64,000 bases of DNA from Escherichia coli. GTDB lineage: Bacteria > Pseudomonadota > Gammaproteobacteria > Enterobacterales > Enterobacteriaceae. The stretch is taken from assembly GCF_044647545.1 (NCBI RefSeq), contig NZ_CP172818.1; one strand, given 5' to 3'. The position numbers are program-made. Below are positions 15,001 through 21,000 of the stretch, in pieces; position 1 is the stretch's first letter, and each line of letters starts with the position of its first letter.

Positions 15001-18000
15001 AACGCCGCTGCGAACTTCACTCTTACCAATTGCCAACGGAAGAATTAAGCGCATCTCTCCCGCAAGGACTTTCTTGTCACGCAGCATATGCGGTAAATAC
15101 GCCTGCGCAGACATTTCGCGCGGCCCATTGACCGGTAACCCAGCCCGCGTGAGCAGGGTTATAATACGCTGCGTTTCGGCAGAACTAAACTGCCCGAGAC
15201 GTTCCGACGTCCGCGCCGCCATCACCATACCCGCAGCAACCGCTTCACCGTGTAACCAATTGCCATACCCCATTTCAGCTTCAATGGCATGACCAAAGGT
15301 GTGTCCCAGATTCAGTAAAGCACGTAACCCGGTTTCGCGCTCGTCGGCGGCGACAACTTCTGCCTTCAGTTCACAACAACGGCGAATACAGTACGCCATT
15401 GCCGGACCGTCCAGACGCAACAACGCATCCAGATTCTCTTCCAGCCAGTTAAAAAACGCACCGTCAAGAATAATGCCGTATTTGATGACTTCTGCCAGCC
15501 CCGACGCTAACTCACGCGGGGGAAGCGTTTTCAGACAGTCGAGATCCACCACCACTGAAGCAGGCTGGTAGAACGCGCCAATCATGTTTTTACCGAGGGG
15601 ATGGTTGACCGCAGTTTTGCCGCCAACGGAGGAATCGACCTGCGACAGTAACGTCGTCGGGACTTGAATGAAACGTACACCGCGCTGATAACTCGCCGCC
15701 GCAAAGCCGGTCAGATCGCCCACTACGCCGCCGCCAAGCGCCACCAGCGTAGTATCGCGACCATGCGGCTTTTGTAACAACGCCGTAAAGACGGTATCGA
15801 GTACAGCCAGGCTTTTATACTGCTCGCCGTCAGGGAGGATAACGCTATCGACGTTAACACCCGCCTGTTCAAGTACGCCGCGGACCTTATCGAGATACAG
15901 AGGAGCCAGGGTTTCGTTGGTAACCAACATGACCTGCTCGCCCGATTTCAGCGGTAAGAATGAAGCTGGTTCATTAAACAAACCAGATGCGATGGTAATT
16001 GGGTAACTACGTTCCCCGAGAGTAACGACAATCCTCTCCATAACGCGACATCCACCTTAATTACTGTACCCGCAGACGAGTGTATATAAAGCCAGAATTA
16101 GTTGCTTTCCAGCATGTGAATAATCTGGTTTGCGACCACTTTAGCGCTTTGATCATCAGTACGAATGGTCACGTCGGCAATCTCTTCATACAGCGGATTG
16201 CGTTCATTGGCCAACGCTTCCAGAACTTCACGCGGCGGTGTTTCAACGTGCAGCAACGGGCGTTTTTTATCACGCTGCGTGCGTGCAAGTTGCTTTTCGA
16301 TGGTCGTTTCAAGATAAACGACAACGCCACGTGCGGAAAGACGGTTACGCGTTTCGCGGGATTTCACAGAGCCGCCGCCAGTAGCCAGCACAATACCCTG
16401 TTTCTCGGTCAACTCATTGATGACCTTTTCTTCGCGATCGCGGAAGCCTTCTTCGCCTTCTAAATCGAAAACCCAGCCCACATCAGCTCCGGTTCGTTTC
16501 TCAATCTCTTGATCGGAATCGTAAAATTCCATATTGAGTTGTTGAGCTAACTGGCGCCCAATAGTGCTTTTTCCGGCACCCATAGGCCCAACCAGAAAGA
16601 TATTGCGTTTCTCTGCCATTTTTTCGGTACTACTAAGACTATTCGTTAATGATAAACCCGCTTCGCTCAGAGAGCGCCGCAGGACATGAACTGAAACCTC
16701 ATAAGATATTGCGAGAGTCAGACTGAAAATTATCTCAATACTCCAGCGGGTTTGGCAACTGAATAAATCACCCATCCCTCTGCATATCTGGTCGCTGCAA
16801 GCGCGCTGCCTTGCTACCACCGCTCTGGCGATAAATCACCGGGTAAGATTAGCGTAAAAAAGACAGCAAAATGCCGCCTGAATGATAAATCATCATCATG
16901 GAACGCAGGCAGCGAAGAGCACCAACTCTCAAATCGGTACTCCTTGTATGCTAAATACCTGCGCGCGTCAAATAGATGAAACACGTTCAGCGTAAAAACA
17001 TTACCGCTTTTACGGCTGTTTACTCACTGGAAACCAGTCGTGGCGTGATAAACACCACTAACTCGCGTCGTTCATCTTCTTTTCCGTCATGACGAAATAA
17101 TTGCCCGAACCAGGGAATGTCGCCAAGCAACGGTACGCTATCCTGACCCGATTTATTTTTACGGGTAAAAATGCCGCCCAGCGCCAACGTTTCTCCGCTT
17201 TTGACCTCGACCTGCGTTTCGATCTCCTGCTTATCAATCGCCAGCACTTCGCCATCTGCCTGCTGTAGCACCTGCCCCGGAACGTTCTGGCTGATGTGTA
17301 ATTTCAGCCGGATGCGACCTTTTTGTAACACCGTGGGCGTGACCTCCATCCCCAGGACGGCCTCTTTAAATTCCACCGACGTCGCGCCACTTTCCCCGCT
17401 GGAAACCTGATATGGAATTTCGCTCCCCTGTTTAATGCTGGCAGGCTGAAGATGTGAGGCCAGCAGACGCGGACTGGCGATAATATCCAGCTGCTGTTTT
17501 TGTTCGAGCGCGGAAAGCTCAAGATCCAGTAAACGTCCGTTGATGCGTCCAATGTTAAAACCGACATGCGTTGTCGCCGTCGCTACGGAGAGGTCGCTGC
17601 CAAGCGTGGTGACTTGCCCAACGCCACCAGCTTGTTGCGCATCAGCCAACGTCCATTTCACGCCTAACTCACGCAAACTTTTTTCATTAATGGTGACAAT
17701 ATGCGCCGAGAGCTCAACCTGCCCGACCGGCAGATCCATTTGCGCTACCCACTGTTCAAGCGTGCTTAACGCCGTTTTGTTATCTCGCAGCAAAAGGCGA
17801 TTGGTGCGTTTATCGACGGTCATACTCCCTTTGGCACTCAGTAGCTTCTCCCCAGCTTTCGCCAGCTCTCCGGCGTCGGCGTATTGCAGAGTAATATTGC
17901 GATTTTCCAGCGGCAGATTTGCCTGCGCCCGCGCCTGCTCCGCTTCCTGACGGGCGATATTGTCATTCTGCCAGGCAATGGAATGCACTGAGAGAATGTT

Positions 18001-21000
18001 GCCCTCCTGGCGCGTTATCAGTCCGGCGCTTTTCACTACAGTTTGTAGTGCCTGCTTCCAGGGAACATCTGTTAGATGTAACGACACCGTACCGCTGACG
18101 TCTGGCGACACCACCAGGTTCAACTTCTCCTGTTCAGCCAGCGCCTGCAACACCTGAGCTACCGGAACGTCATCCACCATCAGTGTCACTTTTTGCGGCT
18201 TTGCCGCCTGTACGCCGGGTATCAGCATCAACAGTAGTGCGGCTATCCATTGCTTCATTTGTATCTCCTTGCCGTTGCCACAACCATTGTGGCGGTTCGC
18301 AGTTTGTCCCGGTACCCAGCGTTAGTACGTCTGGCGTCAGCTGTAAAATTGTCCAGCCGTTTTCCAGCACATCGTTTTGCTGCACCCGTCGCCATTTCTT
18401 TTGCCCGTCTTTTATTACACCGATGATGCGCTCGCCTCGCCCTACTATCCCCTGATAGCGCCACTGGCTAAGTTCGCTAATCCGGCATAGATCTTCCGGC
18501 GGTTTAAAAGGGTCACGCATACCGGTTAAAAGGCACAATGCAATACCTGCCAACAACCAGCGTTTACCCCTCATGCGGCGTCTCCAGTTGTAGCGTGAAC
18601 AAAAGATCATCACCTTCCACGCTTAACGAAAAACGGCTCACGCTGACGTTGCGCTCTGCCAGCCGTGTAAATGCCGACGGCACTGCTTCCCACAGCGTTT
18701 TCAACGCCAACTCACCTCCCTGCGCGGATGGATGCCAGGAAACCAGTTGCGCGCCGGGCAACTGAAAATCCAGTGGCGAAAAGGGCAGCGTTTTTTCTTC
18801 GCTGAAGGGAGTGGTGTCTACCAGGCGATACAGTGCGGCCCACTGCTGGTGATGACTCGCCCGTAGTCGAATTAATGCGTCGCTCTCTTCCTGGTGTGTC
18901 GATGACAGAAAAATGAGCGTAACTAACATCATCAACCAGAATGCCCAGCAAAGCTGGCGGAGGCGGGGTGATGCGGCGAACCACCAGTCAAAGAGCATGT
19001 CCATCGCTAACCTTCCTTGTTAACTGATACTCAAATTGCCAGCGTCCCTGCGCATCCTGCTGCGTGCCCCCCCGCTGATTGAGATGAAAAAAAGCATCCT
19101 GACAGAGTGACGTTTCCAGCGCGTTTAACGCGGTAATGCTTGTTGTCAGCCCCTTGATCTCCAGCGTTCCCTGCTGCCAGCTTATCGTTGTCAGCCAGGC
19201 GTGCTCGGGTAAAAGCGCCGCCAGTGCTTCCAGCGCAGATTGCCAGTCGCGGGTAAATTGTCGCTGGCGCTGCCTTTGCAAACGCTGTTCGCGTAACTGC
19301 TGTTGCTCCAGCAAACGTGGTTTCGTTATCTGTAAGCTGTGGGCAAGTTGTTGTTCCGCCTGAAGCAAAACGGCGTTTACGCGTGCTTCGGCGTTGCTTG
19401 TCAGACGCAGTATTAGCGTAATCCCGACGGCCAGCAGCAGAGGCGCAACGAACATCAGCAACCAGAAACGCAGAAAAGCGGTCCGGCGTTGCTGTCGCCA
19501 GGGCAAAAAATTAATTGGCGGGTTCATCAGTTCGCCTTCCCTAGCGCCAGCCCCAGCGCGATGGCAAAGTCTCCACCTGGCGGCGGTAGCGGCGGCTGAC
19601 GAACAGAAACGGCCTCCCAGGGATCAAATCCGCCTTCGCCACATAGCGCGACGCTTTCGGGATCAACGGATAACGCTGCCGCCAGCTCCTTCGCGCTAGT
19701 CATCCCCACCGCCAGTTTGCGCCCCCAGCGATAGCGCGTCGCCCACAGCCACTGTTCGTTATCACGCCAGGCCAGACATTGCTGATGAGAAGGTAAAAAA
19801 GGCAGGAATCGCTGTAATGCACTGGCATCCGGGGTGATCGCGCTAACATGAACACGCAACCTTTCTGCCAGAGTAAGCAGCGTTGCCAGCTCTTTGCTTT
19901 GCGCGGCAGTCACGTTATAGGCGGGACTGAGTGAGTCTTCGCTGTAATCGAAGCGCAGGGAGTCCGGATCCATATCCAGTTCACGGGCCATCGTCCCGGA
20001 CAGCCAGGCCGTTTGCTCCCGCTCACCAAGGGACATCGACGGGCGCGGAAATGACCGCTGTAATGTGCGACTGGCGGGAAACGCCAACATAATGTGATGA
20101 CGCTGCGGCAGTTCGCGGCTCCACGGTAACAACGTGTTAGCCAGCCGCTGCGCATCAACAATCCGCCCATCTTTGATAATGTCATTCTCCAGCGGCAACC
20201 GCCACCAGCGTTGCAAAAAGCATTCTTTTGCGCCCCGCACGATCGCAACCGCTACCGCTTCTTGCTGTTGTAAATGCAAACCAATTTGCCAGATCTTAAA
20301 TGCCATTGTGATGATCTCCTTATCACCCGTCACTCTGACGGGTATATCAATGCGTCTGGCTTGCCTTTATACTACCGCGCGTTTGTTTATAAACTGCCCA
20401 AATGAAACTAAATGGGAAATTTCCAGTGAAGTTCGTAAAGTATTTTTTGATCCTTGCAGTCTGTTGCATTCTGCTGGGAGCAGGCTCGATTTATGGCCTA
20501 TACCGCTACATCGAGCCACAACTGCCGGATGTGGCGACATTAAAAGATGTTCGCCTGCAAATTCCGATGCAGATTTACAGCGCCGATGGCGAGCTGATTG
20601 CTCAATACGGTGAGAAACGTCGTATTCCGGTTACGTTGGATCAAATCCCGCCGGAGATGGTGAAAGCCTTTATCGCGACGGAAGACAGCCGCTTCTACGA
20701 GCATCACGGCGTTGACCCGGTGGGGATCTTCCGTGCGGCAAGTGTGGCGCTGTTCTCCGGCCACGCGTCACAAGGGGCGAGTACCATTACCCAGCAGCTG
20801 GCGAGAAACTTCTTCCTCAGTCCAGAACGCACGCTGATGCGTAAGATTAAGGAAGTCTTCCTCGCGATTCGCATTGAACAGTTGCTGACGAAAGACGAGA
20901 TCCTCGAGCTTTATCTGAACAAGATTTACCTCGGTTACCGCGCCTATGGTGTCGGTGCTGCGGCACAAGTCTATTTCGGTAAAACGGTCGACCAACTGAC

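Follow-up and report, generated by a model that had tools for sequence, protein, structure and literature searches.

The genes pilM, pilN, pilO, pilP, and pilQ of Pseudomonas aeruginosa, Neisseria meningitidis, and Myxococcus xanthus are arranged in the order M-N-O-P-Q, and the hofMNOPQ genes of Escherichia coli share that order. Here we analyze hofMNOPQ in a 64,000-nucleotide (nt) stretch of E. coli DNA (contig NZ_CP172818.1), referred to below as the window. The pilMNOPQ operon of Pseudomonas is presumably also divergent from the gene for PBP1a (ponA), as hofMNOPQ is from mrcA. The comABCDE operon of Haemophilus influenzae and pilMNOPQ of Vibrio cholerae belong to the same orthologous group as hofMNOPQ and share its regulation by Sxy (TfoX) through CRP-S sites (PMC1635313), as well as its role in DNA uptake (PMC3330819). 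E. coli differs from the bearers of these competence operons in that it shows no natural transformation, and its DNA uptake has been observed only when Sxy is forced (PMC3330819). In ordinary cultures the operon running from yrfD (hofM) to hofQ is poorly transcribed, and Sxy induces yrfD (hofM) 16-fold in a manner that needs CRP and cyclic AMP (PMC1635313). Sxy-dependent DNA uptake requires hofQ (PMC3330819), growth on DNA is reported to depend on competence-gene homologues, and hofQ contributes to kidney colonization of mice by uropathogenic strains (PMC2649431). The first-pass annotation of the window had described a PilMNOPQ-like module implicated in the use of DNA as a nutrient and usually poorly expressed, and the published work agrees with that description (PMC1635313, PMC3330819). 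The hofMNOPQ operon, its homology to pilMNOPQ and comABCDE, and its Sxy/CRP-S control are all already published.

We consider it highly probable that one explanation covers the whole locus: an intact operon whose annotated starts are correct, whose short junctions are ordinary, and whose 89-nt hofP/hofQ overlap arose passively. Within 17020-20333, an open reading frame (ORF) listing and the raw sequence both place five ORFs on the minus strand, all running the same way: hofM (19527-20306; 259 amino acids), hofN (18988-19527; 179 amino acids), hofO (18564-19004; 146 amino acids), hofP (18170-18574; 134 amino acids), and hofQ (17020-18258; 412 amino acids). Successive genes overlap by 1 nt (hofM/hofN, TGATG), 17 nt (hofN/hofO), 11 nt (hofO/hofP), and 89 nt (hofP/hofQ). 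When compared with complete E. coli genomes, the 3.6-kb hof region is 100% identical to that of strain FDAARGOS_497 and 97-98% identical to that of other E. coli, and it is present in 5425 of 5426 genomes. The RefSeq annotation of FDAARGOS_497, made by the Prokaryotic Genome Annotation Pipeline (PGAP), draws the gene boundaries exactly where our ORFs fall and names the same genes, so that the layout, overlaps, and identification offered by the first-pass annotation all stand. That annotation had also named disruption of several ORFs as an outcome that would overturn its reading; none of the five is disrupted. The gene order M-N-O-P-Q and the tight junctions recur in ~75 other species of Enterobacteriaceae. 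These ORFs are real conserved genes, not chance ORFs, and the locus is the intact, conserved, already known hofMNOPQ operon of E. coli.

Selection on the five genes is purifying. In comparisons of this strain with four other Escherichia lineages, the ratio of nonsynonymous to synonymous substitution rates (dN/dS) was 0.02-0.04 for hofQ, 0.10-0.12 for hofM, and 0.13-0.27 for hofN, hofO, and the hofP core, so the constraint is weakest on N, O, and P. These values bear on the idea that the operon is a decaying cryptic remnant whose odd overlaps reflect relaxed selection or pseudogenization. Such decay would accord with transcription that is poor or below detection unless Sxy is artificially induced (PMC1635313), with the fast divergence of HofN, HofO, and HofP (those of E. 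coli share 41-62% identity with their Citrobacter or Salmonella counterparts), with nonsense codons in hofO and hofP of E. albertii NBRC 107761, and with one E. coli genome that lacks most of hofQ. However, neither this strain nor the annotated E. coli sampled has a broken gene among the five, and all but one of the complete genomes retain the region; dN/dS nowhere approaches 1, and frameshifts are not frequent across E. coli lineages. Starts, ribosome-binding sequences, and junctions are conserved across genera, and hofQ mutants have phenotypes both in DNA uptake and in mouse kidney colonization (PMC3330819, PMC2649431). We therefore regard decay as extremely improbable.

The operon as a whole evolves unevenly: over the same comparison with Citrobacter and Salmonella in which HofN, HofO, and HofP diverge so fast, HofQ retains 84-86% identity. 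Individual genomes show local irregularities. In E. albertii NBRC 107761 (locus positions 3754-4589), hofO has a nonsense codon at codon 70 and hofP at codon 34, with hofM, hofN, and hofQ intact, which looks like either lineage-specific inactivation of hofO and hofP or sequencing error. E. coli CNR20180903 (locus positions 4000-4110) is the sole genome of the 5426 whose match covers <80% of the region; its hofQ retains a few dozen codons from the start and then abuts a truncated barA, a junction that suggests a rearrangement or deletion. In Citrobacter amalonaticus AUH_CA_2023_1 (locus positions 2432-4195), hofM and hofN are fused in frame as a 439-amino-acid ORF and hofO is disrupted; this arrangement may reflect a frameshift introduced in assembly and not the biology of the strain. 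HofN of the present strain is annotated just as "PilN domain-containing protein."

The first-pass annotation had called the starts in this operon unusual and those of hofP and hofO uncertain, and neither statement holds. All five genes start with ATG, preceded 6-9 nt upstream by a Shine-Dalgarno (SD) sequence: AAGGAG for hofM (9 nt upstream), GGGAAGG for hofN, AGGAAGG for hofO (6 nt), GGAG for hofP, and AAGGAG for hofQ (6 nt). The predicted energies of the duplexes with the anti-SD sequence are -6.4 to -7.4 kcal/mol at the annotated starts, compared with +0.6 to -3.3 kcal/mol at the in-frame upstream alternatives of hofM and hofP. Using HofQ, we retrieved 80 loci from different species, 76-79 of which enter the start and junction counts. 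A start codon lies at the homologous codon in 74 of 78 loci for hofM, 55 of 79 for hofN, 50 of 79 for hofO, 56 of 79 for hofP, and 61 of 77 for hofQ. Most of the remaining loci have a start within a few codons of this position, with ATG the commonest codon and median SD energies of -6.3 to -7.1 kcal/mol; for hofQ, the start in nearly all of them lies within 3 codons of the homologous ATG.

Individual proteins add their own evidence. The first methionine of HofP is invariant in an alignment of 34 sequences, and a longer form of HofP is excluded in Citrobacter, Salmonella, and Klebsiella, where an in-frame stop precedes the hofP ATG by 7-8 codons. HofN starts 3-6 residues ahead of an invariant N(F/L)LPWR motif in all species. 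The N-terminus of HofQ is a canonical signal peptide, MKQWIAALLLMLIPGVQA-AKP (MKQW...VQA-AKP), and a downstream hofQ start is unlikely because it would destroy the signal peptide that a secretin needs for export. On this comparative evidence, we take the annotated starts of all five genes to be correct.

The three short overlaps are ordinary operon junctions. The overlap between hofM and hofN is 1 or 4 nt in 64 loci, that between hofN and hofO is 17 nt in 51 loci (with a 3-nt gap in 15), and that between hofO and hofP is 11 nt in 67 loci. In each case the end of the upstream gene contains the downstream ATG together with its SD sequence, an arrangement typical of translational coupling, and local mRNA structure at the junctions is predicted to be unremarkable (z = -1.5 to +0.6). 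Translational coupling at these three junctions is thus plausible from their layout and would probably keep the subunits in proportion. In a pilus-producing assembly plasmid, hofM-hofQ was cloned as a single polymerase chain reaction fragment, and only the hofM ribosome-binding site (RBS) was changed among these genes (bioRxiv 10.1101/856302); the native internal junctions, if left so, suggest that the junctions work unaltered. The hofP/hofQ junction lacks the coupling layout, with the hofP stop 89 nt past the hofQ start, and the SD sequence and ATG of hofQ are predicted to be unpaired (z = +0.4). Because of these two features, independent initiation of hofQ on its own strong, apparently unstructured RBS fits better than termination-reinitiation and is most likely.

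Same-strand overlaps longer than ~60 nt are often start-site mispredictions. The 89-nt overlap (18170-18258, minus strand), in which HofQ codons 1-30 (the signal peptide and first mature residues) double in the +2 frame as the coding sequence of the HofP tail, could on this general ground be an annotation artefact, with the true hofQ start, or the true hofP stop or frame, elsewhere and the two genes not overlapping. Indeed, in-frame TTG and ATG codons occur in hofQ 9-10 codons downstream, and the gene caller picked downstream secretin starts in Pantoea and Atlantibacter loci. However, the annotated hofQ ATG and its AAGGAG open the signal peptide, and any later start loses the charged N-region or the whole peptide. 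This ATG and SD sequence are kept at the same codon in the large majority of loci, as counted above. The hofP stop, for its part, is unambiguous because no earlier stop exists in the hofP frame, and the frame of the hofP core is backed by conservation and by its codon-position pattern. An artefact is therefore very improbable, and the overlap is real.

It is also old. The overlap measures 80-98 nt in 63 of 76 loci, the exceptions being 4, 38, 62-65, 77, 122, and 140 nt. Every long overlap equals 2 modulo 3, which places hofP in frame +2 relative to hofQ. The two loci with a 4-nt overlap have an ATGA junction instead, with hofP in frame +1, and HofP there has 103-105 amino acids. An exhaustive profile search recovered more distant HofP homologues, all with similar charged, low-complexity C-terminal tails. 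Three distant loci, from clusters named Pantoea, Atlantibacter, and Tenebrionibacter, share the neighborhood in which mrcA is divergent from hofMNOPQ-aroK-aroB, and their hofP/hofQ overlaps as called are 44, 44, and 92 nt. In Pantoea and Atlantibacter, an upstream hofQ ATG has a better SD sequence and a proper signal-peptide N-region, which brings the overlap to 68-74 nt; the true overlap in these three groups is probably 68-92 nt.

The length of the overlap follows from what HofQ encodes. A stop in the +2 frame requires T as the last base of one hofQ codon and AA, AG, or GA as the first two bases of the next, so the second of the two HofQ residues must be Lys, Asn, Ser or Arg (AGN codons), Asp, or Glu. 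The hydrophobic HofQ signal peptide offers none of these. In none of 20,000 synonymously recoded versions of HofQ did the first +2-frame stop precede nt 59; its position was nt 89 in 43% of them, nt 86 in 22%, and nt 59 in 13%. An overlap of 89 nt is the modal expectation from the HofQ protein sequence. Likewise, every observed +2-frame hofP stop falls on a HofQ residue pair with D, E, K, N, or S in second place, and the V-D-D/E motif of HofQ is the stop site in 53 of 74 of them. Upon entering hofQ in the +2 frame, hofP would meet signal-peptide codons that cannot give a stop and would then read on as far as the V-D-D motif, where mature HofQ has its first charged residues. The result would be a 29-residue, disordered, unconstrained tail on a PilP-like core. 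From this reconstruction, the 89-nt overlap is most likely a passive by-product of stop-free signal-peptide codons.

The tail itself shows little sign of constraint in its own frame. HofP is conserved up to a CEPxxWxWxREG motif (residue 103), with two invariant cysteines across the 34 aligned sequences; beyond residue 103, the tail varies both in sequence and in length, from 0 to 48 residues, and it is cut to 0-12 residues in Leclercia sp. UBA7405, the metagenome-assembled genome (MAG) OH_SBB_50, Phytobacter, and Kosakonia. In an AlphaFold2 (AF2) model, the beta core has a predicted local distance difference test (pLDDT) score of 85-93, and residues 106-134 score below 50. Column entropy in the hofP-only region is highest at the hofP third position (1.39, compared with 0.90-1.04 at the other two). 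Within the overlap, the hofP third position, which is the hofQ second, becomes the least variable (0.82 and 0.35). Codon-position variability there follows hofQ, and the tail looks unconstrained in the hofP frame.

It is useful to set this overlap beside other long same-strand overlaps and C-terminal extensions. As in those, hofP finishes in an alternative frame of the gene that follows, and the resulting tail is predicted to be disordered and evolves under the constraints of the other gene. What is particular here is that the length is set by stop-free signal-peptide codons in the +2 frame, and there is no sign of a new functional domain.

Several findings weigh against our reading, and some of them speak for selection on the overlap itself. 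First, the assignments of starts, tail, and coupling all come from sequence and comparison. Second, our comparisons did not tie HofO to PilO: it matched no Protein Data Bank (PDB) sequence, and its link to HofN by hhalign is weak (probability 6.6%, E=0.0055). Third, a search upstream of hofM for the CRP-S core (TGCGA-N6-TCGCA-like) with <=2 mismatches found none. Fourth, hofQ third-position variability is 0.83 in codons 20-29, compared with 1.13-1.26 further in, which leaves room for weak extra constraint in the overlap. Fifth, the Asp codon that forms the hofP stop (HofQ codon 29, 18172-18174) is GAT in 56 of 61 loci, compared with 65% at other hofQ Asp codons. This bias could mean selection for a hofP stop at the V-D-D codon; however, 10 of the 11 loci with an earlier hofP stop carry GAT at this codon too, and the species cannot be counted as independent. 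Finally, the tail has persisted in most lineages over a long span, and a neutral view must invoke the rarity of stop positions to account for it.

If the overlap were selected, the HofP tail might have a role of its own, for example in linking HofP flexibly to HofQ or to peptidoglycan; alternatively, ribosomes that cross the hofQ start while reading hofP might tune hofQ translation and thereby set the HofP:HofQ ratio. In addition to the reduced synonymous variability and the GAT bias, this proposal can point to retention of a long overlap in most of the ~75 species and in Erwiniaceae, and to the similar charged, low-complexity tails of all the distant homologues. The features of the tail argue the other way: neither its sequence nor its length is conserved, natural truncations leave almost nothing of it, its codon-position pattern is that of hofQ alone, and it is predicted to be disordered. 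Moreover, the overlap has the length expected under neutrality, and the hofQ RBS is not predicted to need unfolding. We judge selection on the overlap to be unlikely and retain the passive explanation.

Fold and family tests support PilM-, PilN-, PilP-, and PilQ-like proteins. HofM, which would be a cytoplasmic PilM-like protein of actin fold, gives a profile match to M. xanthus PilM (3jc8; E=8e-6) and none to Pfam PilM_2. Its AF2 model (pLDDT 91.5) finds P. aeruginosa PilM as its best Foldseek match (E~2e-13), followed by cyto-GspL/EpsL and FtsA; by target-normalized TM-score, it matches cyto-GspL about as well as PilM. At 259 amino acids HofM is ~100 shorter than PilM of type IVa systems (~354). 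HofN, a PilN-like protein predicted to be bitopic in the inner membrane, matches Pfam PilN (PF05137, E=5e-10) and the profile of M. xanthus PilN (3jc8, E=1.4e-7), and its invariant N-terminal N(F/L)LPWR is of the type that binds PilM. HofO has a single Pfam match, HofO (PF25319, an EspM-like domain; E=2.5e-25). Its place in the operon and its layout, an N-terminal transmembrane (TM) helix with a C-terminal HofO/EspM-like domain, fit PilO and would make it a second bitopic inner-membrane protein.

HofP consists of a signal peptide, a PilP-like beta domain at residues ~30-103, and the disordered tail at 106-134, and would be periplasmic. It matches Pfam HofP (PF10748, E=5e-79) and, weakly, the PilP profile of 3jc8 (E=0.009), and the top 12 Foldseek PDB matches of its core model are all PilP or the HR domain of GspC/PulC/LspC. 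PilP is a lipoprotein. HofP differs from it in lacking a lipobox cysteine: the N-terminus reads LLTG-MRDPF, or A-x-A-RDPF in distant members, and no conserved cysteine stands at +1 after the signal sequence in either the 34-sequence alignment or the distant members. It differs also in the disordered tail encoded inside hofQ. The lipobox cysteine is typical of many PilP proteins and is not needed for the operon assignment. A word-indexed search found the HofP family PF10748 mainly in Enterobacteriaceae, and the exhaustive profile search added Pantoea, Izhakiella, and others. Together these searches detected the family only in Enterobacteriaceae and Erwiniaceae and reached no members in Yersinia, Pasteurellaceae, or Vibrio.

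HofQ, predicted to be the outer-membrane secretin, carries the signal peptide followed by STN/N0, Secretin_N, and Secretin domains (Pfam STN, Secretin_N, and Secretin). It scores 856 bits against NCBIfam HofQ (NF007851), 448 bits against TIGR02515 PilQ (cut-off 284), and 193 bits against GspD, under the cut-off of 351; NCBIfam has no models for HofM, HofN, HofO, or HofP. Its closest solved structure is the competence secretin PilQ of V. cholerae (6w6m, E=2e-74). PilQ proteins have 571-901 amino acids; the 412-amino-acid HofQ aligns to their C-terminal ~390 residues only and is without the N-terminal AMIN region. Type II secretion offers counterparts as well, with cyto-GspL resembling HofM, the GspC HR domain the HofP core, and GspD the HofQ secretin domain; its gene order, partners, and function (protein secretion) differ from those of hof. 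Taken together, HofMNOPQ would form the envelope-spanning "alignment" complex and the secretin of a normally silent type IV pilus or DNA-uptake machine.

The divergent neighbor mrcA (PBP1a; 20426-22978, plus strand) lies outside the operon and shares a control region with it. Its annotated GTG start at 20426 is conserved in 75 of 75 related loci. The intergenic region (20307-20425) is 119 bp long, and 117-121 bp in 72 species, in agreement with the divergent arrangement across about 120 bp in the first-pass annotation. To equate this interval with the control region, as that annotation did, is too narrow. By exact match of the published primers, the fragment used for CRP electrophoretic mobility shift assays (EMSA) of yrfD maps to 20457-20582, wholly inside the mrcA coding sequence (PMC1635313). 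The two predicted weak CRP-S sites are said to sit at the ends of this fragment, the second being placed at -246 from the hofM start, and the band shifts with CRP were weak (PMC1635313). The regulatory DNA would thus extend into the mrcA coding sequence, and, according to the literature, hofMNOPQ is one transcription unit with a weak promoter dependent on CRP and Sxy. Searched across the window, the CRP-S core pattern had fewer matches than in shuffled sequence, and a crude CRP scan gave weak best 22-mers at 20472-20493 and 20553-20574, which are inferred positions and not the published site sequences.

A conserved block (20346-20496) runs from ~-40 to -190 relative to the hofM ATG and includes most of the intergenic region and the first ~24 mrcA codons. 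Across 29 genera its column conservation is 94%, and its core (20358-20399) is invariant, being identical even in Pantoea and Tenebrionibacter, where HofM is just 27-36% identical to that of E. coli. In mrcA codons 1-20, third-position entropy is 0.24-0.31, compared with ~1.0-1.36 later at equal amino-acid conservation. By our own reading, the core holds a dyad-symmetric TTTATA-N16-TATAAA, absent from the list of the scan tool, and this symmetry reads as a weak -35/-10 pair on both strands. The block might then be a shared two-way control element, with hofM transcription starting in, or antisense to, the 5' region of mrcA and competing with PBP1a expression or tuning it. A comparison for hofM transcription antisense to mrcA is the Pseudomonas RNA of the Rfam family asponA, which is antisense to ponA. 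A lesser variant of this control reading would have ribosomes on the hofP tail modulate hofQ initiation. The region upstream of aroK shows conserved runs of comparable length, so strong promoter or leader conservation is not unique to hofM-mrcA. A sigma-70 and terminator scan gave no more matches than in shuffles, the two terminator-like hairpins after hofQ sit in unconserved sequence, the RNA fold of the mrcA 5' region is unremarkable (z=0.32), and a literature search on the mrcA promoter returned nothing relevant. We see two-way control by this block as a slim prospect. A permissive scan gave a sole match to asponA, at 20555-20580 in mrcA, which we rejected (15 bits compared with a gathering threshold of 113); nothing in the hof locus reached its gathering threshold in the Rfam scan.

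The hofM leader also contains an 8-bp perfect inverted repeat, ACCCGTCA-GAG-TGACGGGT (20325-20343, minus strand), directly upstream of the SD sequence at 20316-20320. The E. coli RNA of this region is predicted to be stably folded (z=-3.2). In an alignment of 74 species, pairing is seen in 69% of cells, compared with 14-49% when the partner is slid, and one pair shows a CG/GC/GU exchange. RNAalifold found no family-wide consensus structure in the hofM leader. The hairpin thus appears, from these alignments, to be partly conserved and not universal in the family.

At the other end of the operon, ~50 nt downstream of the hofQ stop, a ~46-nt block (16926-16971, minus strand; TTGACGCGCGCAGGTATTTAGCATACAAGGAGTACCGATTTGAGAG) is almost invariant across genera, and the ~130 nt that follow it are unconserved. 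This block may be a distal aroK promoter or leader. Elsewhere in the window and unrelated to hof, 61809-61851 (minus strand) gives a gathering-level Rfam match to the small RNA ES036 (CssrF), at 43.6 bits.

Overall, the annotated starts and all four overlaps of hofMNOPQ are trustworthy, and no special mechanism is needed for the 89-nt overlap, which a +2 frame without a stop in signal-peptide codons simply explains. The hofM-mrcA conserved block is the only part of the locus possibly worth separate study. The overlap has consequences for how these genes are manipulated. A hofQ deletion that includes the 5' end of the gene takes with it the final 29 codons of hofP, which are probably dispensable. 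Conversely, a deletion of the hofP 3' end removes the SD sequence, start codon, and signal peptide of hofQ, so that the phenotypes of hofP knock-outs may be hofQ phenotypes.

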